Part shown: positions 16,917-28,881 of the stretch, piece by piece
How positions within the stretch are numbered: position 1 is the stretch's first letter
Layout of the letters: each line of letters starts with the position of its first letter
Assembly (NCBI GenBank): GCA_965223865.1
Contig: OZ245020.1
Span: forward strand, 1,446,000-1,477,999
Direction: 5' to 3'
DNA: 32,000 bases
Origin: Nitrosarchaeum sp.
GTDB lineage: Archaea; Thermoproteota; Nitrososphaeria; Nitrososphaerales; Nitrosopumilaceae
The notes under the pieces: generated by a model
What the model was told of the DNA's origin: nothing
Seen by the model: the letters and a program-made list of their open reading frames with translations, nothing else
Database searches by the model: none
Translations under genes and position numbers: made by a program

Positions 16917-19900
16917 TTAGGATTTTGTTACTTTGGGTTTGGTAGCTTTTTTAGGTTTGGCTACTTTGGGTTTGGTAGCTTTTTTAGGTTTGGCTACTTT
17001 GGGTTTGGTAGCTTTTTTAGGTTTGGCTACTTTGGGTTTGGTAGCTTTTTTAGGTTTGGCTACTTTGGGTTTGGTAGCTTTTTTAGGTTTGGCTACTTTG
17101 GGTTTGGTAGCTTTTTTAGGTTTGGCTACTTTGGGTTTATTCTGTTGCTCACTAATTTTTTGTTTAGTTTGTTCTTGTTTTATTTTTAATTTTTTAATAT
17201 CATCTTTAATTTTTTGTTCCTTCTTTTCTTGCTTTATTTTTAATTTTTCATAATTAGCTTTTTCCCTTTCTAATTGTCTTACTAGAATTTGTTGTTCCTT
17301 GTGTTTTTTCATTTCTTCTTTTTTCTGAATAGAAATCAATTGTTTTTCTTTAGAAATAGAATTAATTAATTCAAGACGTTTTTCTTTAGATTTAATCAAT
17401 TCATTTTTTTCTGTTTGAAGCGAATTCTTTATTTTTTCATAATTAGATAATGTAGTTTTTTCTTCTTCAATTTGAGATAAAAGAACATCATGTTCTGATT
17501 TGAACTTTTCAAGAGATTCTTTTTCTGCTTGGAGTTTAGCTAGATTTTCTTTTTGAAGTTCGGATTCTTGTTCAAGGGATTGTTTTTCTGCTTGGAGTTT
17601 AGCCAGGTTTTCTTTTTGGATTGAATATTCATTCTCAAGGGATTGCTGTTCTTGTTTTACTTGTTCTAGAAGTTGGTCATAATCAGATTGTGTCTTTTCA
17701 AGGGATTGTTTTTCTGCTTGGAGTTTAGGTAAGCTTTCTGCTTGGAGTTTGCTATCAGCTGCAATAGCCTGTTTTTCTTTTTCTATTTGGTCTAGTAGAT
17801 CATCGTAATCAGATTGTGTCTTTTCAAGAGATTCTTTTTCTGCTTGGAGTTTAGCCAGGTTTTTTTCTTCAAGTTTACTTTTAGAATCAATATCTTGTTT
17901 TTCTTGATTAATTTTTTGCATTAATTTTTCATTATCAGATTGTGCTTGTTCAAGGGATTGTTTTTCTGCTTGGAGTTTAGCCAGGTTTTCTTTTTGGATT
18001 GAATATTCATTCTCAAGGGATTGCTGTTCTTGTTTTACTTGTTCTAGAAGTTGGTCATAATCAGATTGTGTCTTTTCAAGGGATTGTTTTTCTGCTTGGA
18101 GTTTAGCCAGGTTTTCTTTTTGGATTGAATATTCATTCTCAAGGGATTGCTGTTCTTGTTTTACTTGTTCTAGAAGTTGGTCATAATCAGATTGTGTCTT
18201 TTCAAGGGATTGTTTTTCTGCTTGGAGTTTAGCCAGGTTTTCTTTTTGGATTGAATATTCATTCTCAAGGGATTGCTGTTCTTGTTTTACTTGTTCTAGA
18301 AGTTGGTCATAATCAGATTGTGTCTTTTCAAGGGATTGTTTTTCTGCTTGGAGTTTAGGTAAGCTTTCTGCTTGGAGTTTGCTATCAGCTGCAATAGCCT
18401 GTTTTTCTTTTTCTATTTGGTCTAGTAGATCATCGTAATCAGATTGTGTCTTTTCAAGGGATTGTTTTTCTGCTTGGAGTTTAGCCAGGTTTTCTTTTTG
18501 GATTGAATATTCATTCTCAAGGGATTGCTGTTCTTGTTTTACTTGTTCTAGAAGTTGGTCATAATCAGATTGTGTCTTTTCAAGGGATTGTTTTTCTGCT
18601 TGGAGTTTAGCCAGGTTTTCTTTTTGGATTGAATATTCATTCTCAAGGGATTGCTGTTCTTGTTTTACTTGTTCTAGAAGTTGGTCATAATCAGATTGTG
18701 TCTTTTCAAGGGATTGTTTTTCTGCTTGGAGTTTAGGTAAGCTTTCTGCTTGGAGTTTGCTATCAGCTGCAATAGCCTGTTTTTCTTTTTCTATTTGGTC
18801 TAGTAGATCATCGTAATCAGATTGTGTCTTTTCAAGAGATTCTTTTTCTGCTTGGAGTTTAGCCAGGTTTTTTTCTTCAAGTTTACTTTTAGAATCAATA
18901 TCTTGTTTTTCTTGATTAATTTTTTGCATTAATTTTTCATTATCAGATTGTGCTTGTTCAAGGGATTGTTTTTCTGCTTGGAGTTTAGCCAGGTTTTCTT
19001 TTTGGATTGAATATTCATTCTCAAGGGATTGCTGTTCTTGTTTTACTTGTTCTAGAAGTTGGTCATAATCAGATTGTGTCTTTTCAAGGGATTGTTTTTC
19101 TGCTTGGAGTTTAGGTAAGCTTTCTGCTTGGAGTTTGCTATCAGCTGCAATAGCCTGTTTTTCTTTTTCTATTTGGTCTAGTAGATCATCGTAATCAGAT
19201 TGTGTCTTTTCAAGGGATTGTTTTTCTGCTTGGAGTTTAGCCAGGTTTTCTTTTTGGATTGAATATTCATTCTCAAGGGATTGCTGTTCTTGTTTTAATT
19301 CATTTATGATTTTATTAATTTCATTTTTTGATTTTTCTAATTCAAGTTTTTCTTCTTCAAGTTGTTTTGATAATTCTGCTTGTTCATGTAATCGGGTTTT
19401 TTGAGACTCTCGCATTTCTTCAAGATGAATTTTTTCTTGTTGAATGTTTTTCTCTACTTCTTCTTGTTCTTTTTGAGCTTGGATTAATTCTGCTTTCTGA
19501 GATTCAGAATCTTTCATTAAGGATTCTCTTTCTTTTTTGATTTTTTCTAAAACAGCTGTTCTCTCGATTTTTATTTTCTCTAGTTCTGCTTTTTGGGCTG
19601 AAATTTGTTCAAATAAATTAATCTGAGATGAAATACTCTCACGTTCTCTTTTAATTTGAGACAATAGTTCTGCTTTTGCAGATTCAATTTCTTTTTTTCC
19701 TTCTATGTTTGTTTGGTTTGTTTTAGAAAAATCTGGATTTTCTGACTCTGTGTAAATGACTTCTTTAATTTTCGACTCCTCAATATTATTTTTATTAACA
19801 ACATAGGAATCTTCTACAGTGAATTGATTTGAATTCCAACCTTTGGGCATTGTGCCTCTGATTGTCATATTCTCTTTGGATTTTTGATTTGCTTCATTGG

Positions 19901-20291
19901 TTTGATCAGAAGTTCTTTCATCGGTAATCAAGTTAGTTGTATTACTTGATAATTCATTTAGTTTTCGTTGTACATAATTATAATCAGATTGATACAAAGA
20001 ACGGCCTTTTGATAGTGCATCATGTATAGATTGAAGCCGTCCATAATCACCAGCATCAGAATCAATTAGTTTGTCAACAAGGGGTAAAAGATCACTTTGA
20101 GGAACTTCTTCACTTTTAAATTCAAATGAGGATTCTAATAATTTTTCTAGGTACAGTCTATCAGTATTAAACAGAGTTTTGTTATTTCGAAGTGATTCAC
20201 GAATGTGATCTAATCTCCCTACATCACCTTTACCAAGATCTATTAATTGGCCAATTCTTTCAATGGTTTCTTCAATAGTTAATTCTTGCAT
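16917..20291 (-). CDS. 1124-aa repeat protein: duplicated N-terminal module, ~800-aa coiled coil and Lys/Pro-rich basic tail
   Basis: One uninterrupted ORF with no signal peptide or TM segment. Heptad-compatible Q/E/K/L-rich sequence across residues ~195-1040. Tandem DNA repeats are listed separately below. Confidence 0.85.
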   Translation of the reverse strand: MQELTIEETIERIGQLIDLGKGDVGRLDHIRESLRNNKTLFNTDRLYLEKLLESSFEFKSEEVPQSDLLPLVDKLIDSDAGDYGRLQSIHDALSKGRSLYQSDYNYVQRKLNELSSNTTNLITDERTSDQTNEANQKSKENMTIRGTMPKGWNSNQFTVEDSYVVNKNNIEESKIKEVIYTESENPDFSKTNQTNIEGKKEIESAKAELLSQIKRERESISSQINLFEQISAQKAELEKIKIERTAVLEKIKKERESLMKDSESQKAELIQAQKEQEEVEKNIQQEKIHLEEMRESQKTRLHEQAELSKQLEEEKLELEKSKNEINKIINELKQEQQSLENEYSIQKENLAKLQAEKQSLEKTQSDYDDLLDQIEKEKQAIAADSKLQAESLPKLQAEKQSLEKTQSDYDQLLEQVKQEQQSLENEYSIQKENLAKLQAEKQSLEQAQSDNEKLMQKINQEKQDIDSKSKLEEKNLAKLQAEKESLEKTQSDYDDLLDQIEKEKQAIAADSKLQAESLPKLQAEKQSLEKTQSDYDQLLEQVKQEQQSLENEYSIQKENLAKLQAEKQSLEKTQSDYDQLLEQVKQEQQSLENEYSIQKENLAKLQAEKQSLEKTQSDYDDLLDQIEKEKQAIAADSKLQAESLPKLQAEKQSLEKTQSDYDQLLEQVKQEQQSLENEYSIQKENLAKLQAEKQSLEKTQSDYDQLLEQVKQEQQSLENEYSIQKENLAKLQAEKQSLEKTQSDYDQLLEQVKQEQQSLENEYSIQKENLAKLQAEKQSLEQAQSDNEKLMQKINQEKQDIDSKSKLEEKNLAKLQAEKESLEKTQSDYDDLLDQIEKEKQAIAADSKLQAESLPKLQAEKQSLEKTQSDYDQLLEQVKQEQQSLENEYSIQKENLAKLQAEKQSLEQESELQKENLAKLQAEKESLEKFKSEHDVLLSQIEEEKTTLSNYEKIKNSLQTEKNELIKSKEKRLELINSISKEKQLISIQKKEEMKKHKEQQILVRQLEREKANYEKLKIKQEKKEQKIKDDIKKLKIKQEQTKQKISEQQNKPKVAKPKKATKPKVAKPKKATKPKVAKPKKATKPKVAKPKKATKPKVAKPKKATKPKVAKPKKATKPKVTKS
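16929..17138 (-). repeat. 33-bp tandem repeat, about 6.4 visually identical copies, encoding (KPKVAKPKKAT)n
   Basis: Unit TACTTTGGGTTTGGTAGCTTTTTTAGGTTTGGC begins at 16929, 16962, 16995 and so on. It forms the C-terminus of the 1124-aa ORF. Confidence 0.95.
17598..19235 (-). repeat. 126-bp tandem repeat, 13 units of three sequence types
   Basis: Unit boundaries checked by hand at 17598, 17724, 17976, 18102 and 19235. Protein-order pattern is A B C A' B B A B B B C A' B, with diverged partial units on both sides. Confidence 0.95.
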
Positions 20292-20719
20292 TTACCTCAT
20301 CTGAAATCCTATCATTTTTGATTAATGTAATGACAGGATAAAAAAACTTTTGAAAATTCATTTTGTGGAAATTATCAAACACGATCAAACTACGCTCTCA
20401 AAAAAATTAAGCAGAAGGCAAGATGTTTCCATCTTCAAGATTCAGTTCATGCTCTGAACTGAGCAAAGTGACCATTGTCACTTTTATTACGCTTATTTCA
20501 TCGTAATTGATCAATTTCTTGACCATCTCTGAGCCTTTCTGCGCTTTACATCCCAGAATTATTTCAAGAATGCAATATTATTACGCATTGATAATATTTA
20601 TTGATGATCTATAATTTCTATATAATTACTATATAGAATAAAATAAAAATTAAAAATATTTGAAATTTTTTTTGGATTTATTCAAATTTTTTAGCAACTA
20701 ATGTATCTTAAAACCAGAT

Positions 20720-24481: not shown

Positions 24482-24949
24482 ATGGTGATTGAAAAAAGTG
24501 CAAATCTACCGGTAAAAGAAATAATGAATCCAAACGTTGTTTCAGTAGGATCAGATGCAACATTAATTGAAGTTTCAGAGCTAATGAAAAAACACAAAAT
24601 TGGATCTGTGGTAATCGTTGAGGAGGACAAAGTCATAGGAATAGTGACTGAACGAGATTTTGCTACAAAAATCATATTAGAATCTCATTTGCCAAACACT
24701 AAGGTTTCTGCAGTAATGTCAACTCCTGTAATTCATGTAGAATCAAATCAATCTGTGTCAGATATAATTGAAATAATGGCCAACAAGGAAATACGTAAGG
24801 TTCCAGTAATAGATGAAGGAAAGATAGTTGGGATGGTAAGTGGAACAGAATTTCTACGCCTTTTTGTTCAAGCCTCTGATCAGGACATGAGAAAGATATA
24901 TCAAGAATATGTAAAAAGAATCTATTCTAATTGGTTTGAGGATGACTGA
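24482..24949 (+). CDS. Stand-alone CBS-domain pair protein
   Basis: 155 aa with two CBS repeats (IMNPNVVSV..IGSVVIVEE..VIGIVTERD and VMSTPVIHV..IRKVPVID..IVGMVSGTE). Confidence 0.75.
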   Translation: MVIEKSANLPVKEIMNPNVVSVGSDATLIEVSELMKKHKIGSVVIVEEDKVIGIVTERDFATKIILESHLPNTKVSAVMSTPVIHVESNQSVSDIIEIMANKEIRKVPVIDEGKIVGMVSGTEFLRLFVQASDQDMRKIYQEYVKRIYSNWFEDD

Positions 24950-24990: not shown

Positions 24991-25425
24991 ATGGATTTTA
25001 AAAATATTTTAGTTGCTTACGATTCTTCAGGCTTTTCAAACAGAGCTTTCAAAAGCGCATTAGACATTGCAGAACCAAATAAAAGTAAAATTACTATTGC
25101 CACAGTGGTAACTGGTGTGTATCAGCCCTCAATCGGATTTACAATGAAATATGCAGAAAAAACATTAGAAAAACACAAAAAAATCATTAAAAAAATATTT
25201 TCAAATCTAGAATCTGCAGCAAACAAAAAAGGGGTAAGTCTCTCCTTAAAAATTTTGCACAATCCCTCTGTATCAAAAGGAATTCTAAATTATTTAAATT
25301 CACACAAATTTGATGTGATTGTTATTGGATCTCATGGCAGAACAGGACTTAACAAAATTATTTTGGGCAGTGTTGCAAATGACGTAGCACACAAAGCAAA
25401 AATTCCTGTAATGGTGGTAAAATAA
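24991..25425 (+). CDS. Universal stress protein (UspA family)
   Basis: 144 aa. ILVAYDSS...VIGSHGRTGLNKIILGSVANDVAHKAKIPVMVVK contains the USP ATP-binding G-x2-G-x9-G(S/T) motif. Confidence 0.85.
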   Translation: MDFKNILVAYDSSGFSNRAFKSALDIAEPNKSKITIATVVTGVYQPSIGFTMKYAEKTLEKHKKIIKKIFSNLESAANKKGVSLSLKILHNPSVSKGILNYLNSHKFDVIVIGSHGRTGLNKIILGSVANDVAHKAKIPVMVVK

Positions 25426-25428
25426 AAA

Positions 25429-25863
25429 ATGACGATCACAAATATTCTAGTTCCCTTTGATGGTTCCAAGTACTCAGTCAAAGCATTTAATGCTGCATTA
25501 GATATCGCAAAAAAGCAAAATGCAAAAATCATTGTTCTTACTTGCTTGGAAAAAGAAAATCTAGGAGCATGGTATGTCGATAACAGAGTAAATAAGCAAA
25601 TAGTAAAAGATGCAAAAAAATTTGCAATAGATTTTCTCACAAAGCTGAAAAACAAGGCAGAGAAGGTAGGAGTTTATGTTTCTGTAAACGTGCTTAAAAC
25701 AAAATCAATATCAAAGCAGATTGTTAATTTTGCAAATTCAAAAAAGATTAATCTAATTGTAATTGGATCTCATGGGCAATCAGGATTTAACCAATTTCTC
25801 TTAGGCAGTGTTAGTAATGCAGTAAGCCAATCAGCAAAATGTCCAGTTTTGATAATAAAATAA
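25429..25863 (+). CDS. Universal stress protein (UspA family), tandem paralog
   Basis: 144 aa. ILVPFDGS...VIGSHGQSGFNQFLLGSVSNAVSQSAKCPVLIIK. Lies 3 nt after the previous USP gene. Confidence 0.85.
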   Translation: MTITNILVPFDGSKYSVKAFNAALDIAKKQNAKIIVLTCLEKENLGAWYVDNRVNKQIVKDAKKFAIDFLTKLKNKAEKVGVYVSVNVLKTKSISKQIVNFANSKKINLIVIGSHGQSGFNQFLLGSVSNAVSQSAKCPVLIIK

Positions 25864-27717: not shown

Positions 27718-28881
27718 TTGGGTTTATTTGTATCGATTTTTTTCACAATTTTATTGAAAATTCCCTTTATTGCAGTAATTTTGTTTCTAGTAGTAGGTTT
27801 TTTCTCCTCGCCTGTTTTTGGGCAAACCACTGAATTAGATTATGATGTTCGTGGAGGAGAAGTTACAGGTATTGACATAGATAACGAAAATAATTCTTTG
27901 ATAATTTTATTGGATACTCGTACAAGAGGAGAACTTGTCATTACGTTACCACGTAGCTTAATTGATGCAAAAATTGATTCTGAAGACACAGAGTTTAAAA
28001 TTTTAGTAAGTGGGCTAGGTCTTAACTTCTTTGATGAGACTAAAACAGAAAAAGATAGAACGATAGCTATTCCATTTAGCAGATCTGATTATGAAGTAAT
28101 AATTACTGGAACTCATCTTTTCGGTCAAGAGAAGTCCCAAAAAAATACAGAAAAAGAAATCGAAGAAACAATTAAAGACGAATTAGAAATGGAGATTCCC
28201 AACAATCAAGCAAAATTACTGATATTTTCTGATACTCAATGGTCAGGTGCATTTCAATCTTCAAGTTTTCCATTCACCGAAATAAAAGGAGATAATGATG
28301 ACAGTATTGTTTTTACTTGTGATTCATCATTTAATCGTGAAGGTATTTTTGGTGCAAAAATACAAAAATTGACTCAAGATGGATATCTGAAACTAGTAGT
28401 AATTCAAAATAAAGAAGTGATAACTCAAGGTTCTACTCAAGAAACTTTTGGAGAAGTACTGATTAATGGCAATTGCATTTCTAGTTTGCAATTAGATGAT
28501 GGGGTTGGTGGTGGATGTTTGATTGCTACTGCCACATTTGGTTCAGAGTTAGCCCCACAAGTCCAAAAATTAAGAGAAATAAGAGATAATTCCTTGCTTC
28601 AAACAGAGTCAGGCACCGCATTTATGAGTTCATTTAATGATTTTTACTATTCATTTAGTCCAATTATTGCAGATTATGAACGTGAGAATCCAATATTTAG
28701 AGAAATAGTAAAAATCGCACTGACTCCAATGATAACTTCTCTTTCAATTCTGAATTATGTGGAAATGGATTCTGAAGCTGAAGTTTTAGGATATGGAATT
28801 AGTTTAATCATAATTAATGTGGGAATGTACTTTGGATTTCCAATAGGTATGATTATGATAATTCAAAGAAACAAAAGATAG
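27718..28881 (+). CDS. Secreted/membrane protein (387 aa) with conserved Cys-containing C-terminal module
   Basis: N-terminal hydrophobic signal ending PVFGQ. The N-terminal domain is related to the C-terminal domain of the copper protein. Also has GGGCLIATATFGSELAPQVQKLREIRDN, hydrophobic segments and an RNKR end. Confidence 0.65.
   Translation: MGLFVSIFFTILLKIPFIAVILFLVVGFFSSPVFGQTTELDYDVRGGEVTGIDIDNENNSLIILLDTRTRGELVITLPRSLIDAKIDSEDTEFKILVSGLGLNFFDETKTEKDRTIAIPFSRSDYEVIITGTHLFGQEKSQKNTEKEIEETIKDELEMEIPNNQAKLLIFSDTQWSGAFQSSSFPFTEIKGDNDDSIVFTCDSSFNREGIFGAKIQKLTQDGYLKLVVIQNKEVITQGSTQETFGEVLINGNCISSLQLDDGVGGGCLIATATFGSELAPQVQKLREIRDNSLLQTESGTAFMSSFNDFYYSFSPIIADYERENPIFREIVKIALTPMITSLSILNYVEMDSEAEVLGYGISLIIINVGMYFGFPIGMIMIIQRNKR

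Follow-up and report, generated by a model that had tools for sequence, protein, structure and literature searches.

Expansion of a heptad-phased tandem repeat array in a probable coiled-coil spacer or scaffold protein of Nitrosarchaeum and related ammonia-oxidising archaea

We analysed a stretch of 32,000 nucleotides from the archaeon Nitrosarchaeum sp. (contig OZ245020.1, positions 1,446,000 to 1,477,999 of the forward strand; hereafter the window), in which an unannotated gene on the reverse strand encodes an 1124-residue protein whose long central rod contains 13 tandem units of 126 bp. Overall, the gene is best explained by the expansion of a heptad-phased array in a coiled-coil protein that would serve as a length-defined spacer or scaffold, a reading that we consider probable; we hold the anatomy of the array and protein, and the manner of their evolution, with high confidence, and the specific tether mechanism set out below tentatively, as one possibility.

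Tandem Repeats Finder (TRF) reported a period of 126 with 13.7 copies at 17566-19297 of the window (score 2143), and anchoring on LQAEK placed 13 full 42-residue units at exactly 17598-19235 (-) within the 1124-residue open reading frame (ORF), in the order A B C A' B B A B B B C A' B in the direction of the protein, as a sequence-only reading of the same DNA had proposed. That reading had also judged by eye that copies of one type are identical at the nucleotide level, and this is confirmed, there being no difference at all among the seven B, two A, two A' and two C units; its wider description of the units as near-identical holds within types but fails across them, as 32-36 of 126 nucleotides differ between types (~72-75%, or roughly 73%, identity), while A and A' differ by 2 nucleotides, A' being a Q-to-E variant. 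The four-unit block B-C-A'-B recurs as reported (17598-18101 = 18606-19109, offset 1008, 0 mismatches in 504), and the exact match around it is longer still, at 536 bp (17571-18106 = 18579-19114), which is far above chance for 32 kb, where we estimate ~15 bp. A proposed 21-residue sub-periodicity is detectable in B, whose halves match at 7 of 21 residues and 34 of 63 nucleotides (22.8 +/- 3.3 nucleotides in codon shuffles), but is weak overall, the halves of A matching at only 25 of 63 nucleotides, not above chance in the same comparison. Just upstream of the array stands a half-unit with a single nucleotide difference from the second half of B. At the C-terminal edge we found the 21-residue hybrid unit that had been described there (17535-17597), with its first 27-30 nucleotides identical to the start of B or C and 10 differences from the end of B in its last 36 nucleotides; one strongly diverged old unit lies downstream of it. 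We saw no centre-to-edge gradient within the array, contrary to the earlier picture of perfect copies framed by diverged ones; instead, three old unit types are interleaved.

Along the 840-residue rod a single hydrophobic period was dominant (3.5 residues, power 17.5, the next highest being 2.9), and heptad positions 0 and 4 were 81% and 42% hydrophobic, respectively, in phase along residues 205-1045. Because this period dominates the whole rod, the 42 residues of a unit correspond to six heptads in phase, which bears out the proposal that gain or loss of a unit preserves the coiled-coil register. At 0.1485 nm per residue the array would span ~81 nm and the whole rod ~125 nm; the ~80 nm suggested earlier is thus sound arithmetic for the array but falls short of the rod. 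A full-length AlphaFold2 model (single-sequence monomer, mean predicted local distance difference test score (pLDDT) 57) was helical over residues 199-1045, with interruptions only in the A/A' units and one C unit, so that structure prediction, at this low confidence, agrees with the heptad analysis in pointing to a coiled coil. In each A/A' unit the predicted break immediately precedes the proline; these A-type units each end in ...ESLPK (prolines at residues 393, 519, 645 and 855), LPK-containing units are present in all orthologues, and in this model the prolines may act as hinges every 3-5 units.

Complete or near-complete long forms of the gene came only from chromosome-scale or long-read assemblies, of which there are six. 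Their products carry 12 units (OZ245014.1, Nitrosarchaeum sp., 1036 residues; locus L003), 12.6 units (WLWD01000003.1, 1037 residues; L027), 14 units (OZ252092.1, 1123 residues; L009), about 15 units (a 1.52-Mb circular contig, the gene split by frameshifts; L032), 24 units (an ENA long-read contig, the gene split by one frameshift; L002) and 25 units (OX638319.1, 1643 residues; L011). Comparison of related loci thus supports the suggestion of a length-variable rod, orthologues having either no array or 12-25 units, and the array is a conserved feature of a clade rather than an oddity of this genome. The window and L003, from a sister species, are collinear over ~15 kb at ~85% nucleotide identity, with neighbouring proteins 83-99% identical and the coiled-coil protein 65% identical, and this bears out the placement in Nitrosopumilaceae that the sequence-only reading had assumed. 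The non-repeated parts of the protein were 75-91% identical in amino acids between the two, with a ratio of non-synonymous to synonymous substitution rates (dN/dS) of 0.17-0.32 and a synonymous rate (dS) of 0.14-0.41; the linker between the N-terminal module and the rod was the least conserved (75%), and the N-proximal and C-proximal rod were 88.5% and 88% identical (dN/dS 0.17 and 0.20). These values point to a constrained gene with a fast-evolving core.

The gene order of L032 is the same as that of the window. A Nitrosopumilus metagenome-assembled genome (MAG; locus L029) is collinear with 9.3-23.1 kb of the window and has at the same position (3324-4787 of L029) a gene for 487 residues with the same N-module, linker motif, rod ends and a short basic end, and no array. 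Collinear loci thus include an array-less form as well as forms with ~12-15 units; those with 24-25 units have other neighbouring genes. When its array was collapsed to one unit, the window protein aligned over most of its length with array-less relatives of 450-550 residues (alignment A2). This alignment and the collinear array-less gene of L029 show that the array arose by amplification, within one clade, of a single segment of an older protein's rod. A short form in Nitrosarchaeum limnium BG20 (L030 168-1247), truncated to 359 residues, stands at a different position, beside EF-2, and is a paralogue or a relocated orthologue.

Within the window 13 of 14 units have an identical twin in the array, and the same holds for most units in every genome, whereas the best between-genome unit identity averages 0.72-0.81 and reaches at most 0.91. 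Types A, A' and C are common to the window and L003 at 88-91% nucleotide identity and for this reason predate the split between the two; B is a mosaic, the first half being 90% identical to A and the second B-specific. The order of units differs between these two sister species, and L011 carries a seven-unit block duplication like the four-unit block described here. Identical copies, block duplications, chimeric units and differing unit orders all follow from continual unequal recombination and gene conversion, and together they indicate continuing concerted evolution of the array. The recent unequal-crossover expansion proposed by the sequence-only reading is therefore upheld as regards identical twins within genomes (against 72-91% identity between them), but not as a single recent burst. 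The basic end of the protein has expanded as a K/P/A-rich tail in the same clade as the array.

The remaining parts of the protein are listed in Table 1. The start codon agrees with the M-x-E-L-T start of all orthologues, and the reading frame stays open across the 1.7 kb of repeats and meets the conserved flanks correctly. Each of the two units of the N-terminal module bears a G-D-x-G-R-L...I...L...SD..YL motif, with G22, D23, G25, R26 and L27 and G81, R85 and L86 invariant in alignments A1 and A2, and AlphaFold2 given an alignment of eight sequences modelled residues 1-115 as two three-helix units at a pLDDT of about 85-93. In the linker, pLDDT fell below 50 over residues 120-162, and residues 116-198 had no predicted secondary structure; its motif (G146, M148, P149 and W152) is invariant in A2 even in relatives at 26% identity, and this GxMPxxW sequence is probably a short linear binding motif. 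The C-proximal rod can be aligned to the C-terminal part of the rod in array-less relatives. The tail holds a second tandem repeat (33 bp x 6.7, PKVAKPKKATK, 16917-17138, 98% matches by TRF). In the orthologues tail composition and charge are kept (+14 to +40 in all long forms) and the repeat units differ, being ~5-6 to 11 residues long and mixing KPKVT/KPKKTT, AKKPAKAAA, EAKKPAKAKA, KAKAKPAP and KPKAEP. An ORF of 106 residues on the opposite strand (16933..17253(+), "MGLVAFLGLATLG...") is the mirror image of the tail repeat and not a gene.

Table 1. Parts of the coiled-coil gene and candidate signals upstream of it, with positions in the window.
Feature	Position	Strand	Basis
Complete coding sequence, 1124 residues, coiled-coil protein without annotation	16917..20291	(-)	ATG at 20291, TAA at 16917-16919
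N-terminal module, residues 1-115: two tandem ~50-residue three-helix units	19947..20291	(-)	alignments A1, A2; AlphaFold2
Linker, residues 116-204: acidic, polar, predicted to be disordered	19680..19946	(-)	pLDDT and secondary structure
Motif G-T-M-P-K-G-W, residues 146-152, within the linker	19836..19856	(-)	alignment A2
N-proximal rod, non-repeated, residues 205-352; the last 21 residues are half a B unit	19236..19679	(-)	helix from residue 199
Array of 13 x 126 bp (six heptads per unit), 546 residues, ~81 nm as a coiled coil	17598..19235	(-)	TRF, unit comparison, heptad phase
Hybrid half-length unit of 21 residues (LQAEKQSLEQESELQKENLAK), three heptads	17535..17597	(-)	anchor spacing 21
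C-proximal rod, non-repeated, residues 920-1045; opens with the old diverged unit	17157..17534	(-)	helical to 1045
Polycationic tail, residues 1046-1124	16917..17156	(-)	79 residues, net charge +32, 13 Pro
Candidate archaeal B recognition element (BRE)/TATA element, A/T-rich (AAAGTTTTTTTA), ~50 nucleotides upstream of ATG	20339..20350	(-)	by eye; inference only
Candidate Shine-Dalgarno-like GAGGT motif	20294-20298	(-)	by eye

Searches of family and structure databases yielded no informative match. Pfam contained no family at E<=1 for the whole protein and none for the N-module; NCBIfam had no match to the N-module and only weak structural maintenance of chromosomes (SMC) models for the whole protein; no significant sequence match was found in the PDB with the profile or the full protein; and a Foldseek search of the PDB with the N-module model gave a best E-value of 1.8 and nothing at E<=0.001. 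PADLOC returned no match to the protein, PHROGs matched two families of unknown function with no single matched stretch above threshold, and Rfam and tRNA scans of the 32-kb window had no hits. A full-length profile search of a set of 5.8 billion proteins was swamped by coiled-coil candidates; the N-terminal profile, searched against 1.84 billion representatives, identified 372 proteins at E<=0.001, 113 of them at E<=1e-10. All named relatives are from Nitrosopumilus or Nitrosarchaeum, nearly all of them annotated as hypothetical (including entries of N. limnium BG20 and N. salaria BD31) and one as "SMC, partial", and no relative in the protein searches carried Nitrosopumilus maritimus SCM1 as its source name. 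The family thus appears, as far as seen, to be restricted to ammonia-oxidising archaea, marine and freshwater, of the Nitrosopumilus/Nitrosarchaeum group. A membrane GT2 glycosyltransferase and a KAP P-loop NTPase begin with the N-module too, which also occurs in multi-copy arrays (P0074, P0141, P0052, P0104). These fusions and arrays fit a portable interaction or localisation module, and the GDxGRL three-helix module appears to be an undescribed domain family. We found no description of this coiled-coil protein in the literature; the "coiled-coil motif protein" reported from Nitrosotalea is encoded by another gene, acquired horizontally. Repeat-driven variation in coiled-coil length is of a known kind; the family, its N-module and its distribution among ammonia-oxidising archaea are undescribed.

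We conclude that the ancestral protein had ~450-550 residues, comprising a pair of GDxGRL units, a linker with GxMPxxW, a rod of ~300 residues and a short basic C-terminus, and that in one clade a 42-residue segment of this rod multiplied to 12-25 copies and the basic end developed separately into the K/P/A-rich repeat tail. Each unit gained or lost would change the length of the rod by ~6 nm with the register intact, since a unit is six heptads. The protein would most likely form a parallel, in-register homodimeric coiled coil; we infer that a parallel oligomer is favoured over an antiparallel fold-back arm because units are gained and lost at arbitrary positions. Such a dimer could act as a length-defined spacer or scaffold, the N-module and linker motif docking to a protein partner or cellular site and the polycationic tail binding a polyanion, for which nucleoid DNA or RNA is the most plausible candidate, or else the acidic rods of its neighbours. 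Cells of N. maritimus are 320-410 nm wide by cryo-electron microscopy (PMC11082331), so a rod of 125-220 nm would span a third to half of the cell width.

Tails rich in K, A and P, built of tandem repeats and of high positive charge, are likewise found in the histone H1 C-terminal domain, chlamydial Hc2, mycobacterial HupB and Pseudomonas AlgP, where composition is conserved rather than sequence. The tail described here differs in being joined to an acidic rod of 125-220 nm and a distant globular module, and the likeness is by composition only. Another architectural parallel is mammalian p180/RRBP1, described as a scaffold in which a single polypeptide carries both a highly basic tandem-repeat region and a long acidic coiled coil (PMC3326322). 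Its basic region is a decapeptide repeat and lies N-proximally, and the protein is eukaryotic and anchored in a membrane; we draw on it as an architectural analogy only, with no homology.

Several observations weigh against a spacer or scaffold of this kind. The gene neighbourhood is not conserved beyond a Nitrosarchaeum-like synteny group, so that context points to no partner; several array-less relatives have little or no basic tail (A2), and polyanion binding may not be ancestral; and half of the "a" layer is polar (K/Q), so that the coiled coil may be weak or need a partner. Unit 4 of L003 (residues 478-513) has 36 residues rather than 42 owing to an 18-bp deletion, which would shift the heptad phase by one residue: either this is a tolerated "skip", and strict register is not absolutely needed, or it is an assembly error. 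The idea of proline hinges is weakly supported, as it derives from the full-length single-sequence monomer model with its mean pLDDT of 57.

A bolder form of the spacer proposal, which we think quite unlikely, is that the array is a genetically tunable ruler in which the number of units sets a cellular distance, that GDxGRL is a thaumarchaeal localisation hub and that the joint expansion of rod and tail reflects selected charge balancing. If so, the distance might, for example, be that separating the nucleoid from a location on the envelope, at a pole or at the division plane, and the hub would be common to the membrane glycosyltransferase and the KAP NTPase. In known repeat rulers (phage tape-measure proteins, YscP/FliK and the 33-residue repeats of cyanobacterial GvpC) the number of units likewise sets length and differs between strains or species, but here, in a comparison made from sequence alone, there is no phage, secretion-system or gas-vesicle context.

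The main rival to a spacer or scaffold is an intermediate-filament-like cytoskeletal scaffold in the sense of crescentin, FilP and Scy, which we judge unlikely. Dimers would self-assemble without nucleotide, the basic tail lying on the acidic rod of a neighbour, and would help to give the cell its rod shape, with the array altering the lattice spacing. Crescentin and the Streptomyces proteins FilP and Scy are likewise cytoplasmic, defined by architecture and built on a very long coiled-coil rod, which in Scy is regularly repeated; here too a long heptad rod makes up most of the protein, and the family is conserved across the group. Intermediate filaments assemble by a basic-head/acidic-rod principle, which the charge pattern here resembles: A and B units have a net charge of -4 and C units of -1, the whole rod carries -47 against +32 for the tail, and acidic units and basic tail are expanded in the same clade. 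However, there is no sequence or fold relation to these proteins, and Pfam, NCBIfam and PDB searches revealed no homology to known filament formers; the Scy repeat is an unusual one of 51 residues, whereas the repeat here is a canonical 42 residues of six heptads in identical DNA copies. The GDxGRL module, the linker motif and the polycationic tail also set the protein apart, and a folded, portable N-module with an invariant linker motif suggests partner docking rather than pure self-assembly. A conserved lattice would not easily accommodate rods that differ two-fold in length between species, no SCM1-named orthologue was found, and neither filament nor cytoskeleton occurs as a word in a cryo-electron tomography study of N. 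maritimus (PMC11082331).

A different kind of doubt is whether the array is real but its copy number and unit order in the window are an artefact of assembly (collapse, expansion or mis-ordering), which we consider improbable. Short reads cannot resolve exact repeats that reach 536 bp, and in 17 of the 18 distinct short-read metagenome or MAG contigs that contain the gene (from L004-L008, L010 and L012-L026) the contig breaks off within it, in 11 cases at or within the first array units, so the gene and its array are a systematic breakpoint in short-read assemblies; frameshifts in the gene in two low-coverage long-read contigs add to the concern. Set against this are the in-frame ORF with its correct joins, the similar count in the sister species (12 versus 13 units) and the same unit, with comparable structure and block duplications, in six independent chromosome-scale or long-read assemblies. 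Frameshifts in long-read contigs of low coverage (2x, 13x) split the gene into 2-4 called ORFs (L002 10675-10782; L032 9164-10916; L031), and for this reason gene callers under-report its length even where the array is assembled; L031, a 2x long-read Nitrosarchaeum contig, stops before the array.

We also considered a stable single alpha-helix (SAH, or ER-K) that would act as a monomeric ruler, and found it very improbable. Q, E and K make up 47% of the array, there are 12 opposite-charge i/i+4 pairs per 100 residues and half of the "a" positions are polar, all of which would suit a single helix. SAH domains have no hydrophobic seam and a much higher E/K/R content, whereas here E+K+R amounts to just 29% and the 22% of hydrophobic residues lie in a strict heptad stripe, 81% hydrophobic at one position; we rejected the single helix on these two counts, which argue for a coiled coil.

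In-frame tandem repeats with size variation in a heptad rod also recall streptococcal M proteins, which would make this a surface fibril or adhesin, or else a ruler of viral origin such as a tape-measure protein, but either would be a very remote prospect here. Such repeats, varying the size of the rod, are the hallmark of M proteins, and tape-measure and needle-length rulers also vary by repeats. The M proteins share with this protein in-frame repeat blocks in a dimeric heptad rod (the dimer here being our proposal), size variation by homologous recombination between intragenic repeats (here 12-25 units) and concerted evolution, but they are virulence factors that are secreted, anchored to the wall and under immune selection. 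Inspection, without a dedicated signal-peptide predictor, revealed no visible signal peptide, transmembrane segment or anchor in our protein, whose N-terminus is acidic and folded (MQELTIEETIERIG...) and whose C-terminus is a soluble K/P tail, with no hydrophobic segment; we therefore rejected a surface adhesin. The locus lies in a syntenic chromosomal housekeeping region in several genera, its neighbours are not virion or secretion-apparatus genes, and with no PADLOC match and no convincing PHROGs family a phage or secretion-needle ruler was rejected as well. Given the lack of export signals, the housekeeping neighbours and these search results, the protein appears to be cytoplasmic and its gene chromosomal.

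Finally, an SMC/Rad50-type chromosome protein with an antiparallel fold-back arm is effectively refuted: one partial relative was named "chromosome segregation protein SMC" by its source, and an NCBIfam SMC model (TIGR02168) matched weakly (56.6 bits, E 1e-15), but the curated cut-off is 567 bits, the match covers repeat residues 522-798 only and reflects coiled-coil composition, there are no ATPase heads (Walker A/B), P-loop or hinge and no Pfam SMC_N or hinge match, and gain or loss of units anywhere would unbalance an antiparallel arm.

The neighbours of the gene in the window encode an O-methyltransferase, a DUF6659 protein, a plastocyanin-like protein, TrkH-CBS, Usp and EF-2. Two adjoining Usp paralogues of 144 residues each (24991-25425 and 25429-25863) stand beside a CBS-pair protein (24482-24949), an arrangement conserved in L003. 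Further along, an ORF of 387 residues (27718-28881) has no Pfam match; its C-terminal ~150 residues are ~53% identical to 540-residue proteins whose genes, in both L002 and L011, lie within a few kb of the one for the coiled-coil protein.

Ammonia-oxidising archaea rank with the most abundant microbes and are rod-shaped; to our knowledge they lack the usual actin-type shape determinants, and the organisation and segregation of their chromosomes are largely unknown. The conserved, clade-specific protein described here joins a 125-220 nm rod to a new, putative docking module and an H1-like tail, which makes it a concrete candidate for a cytoskeletal or nucleoid-organising element, and its orthologues provide a natural series of rod lengths, from no array to ~12 and up to 25 units. 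As the gene is a recurrent breakpoint in short-read MAGs of this group and is mis-annotated as partial, as hypothetical or as "SMC", it also matters for estimates of MAG completeness and for pangenome analyses. Streamlined genomes here keep two rapidly evolving tandem arrays within one constrained gene.

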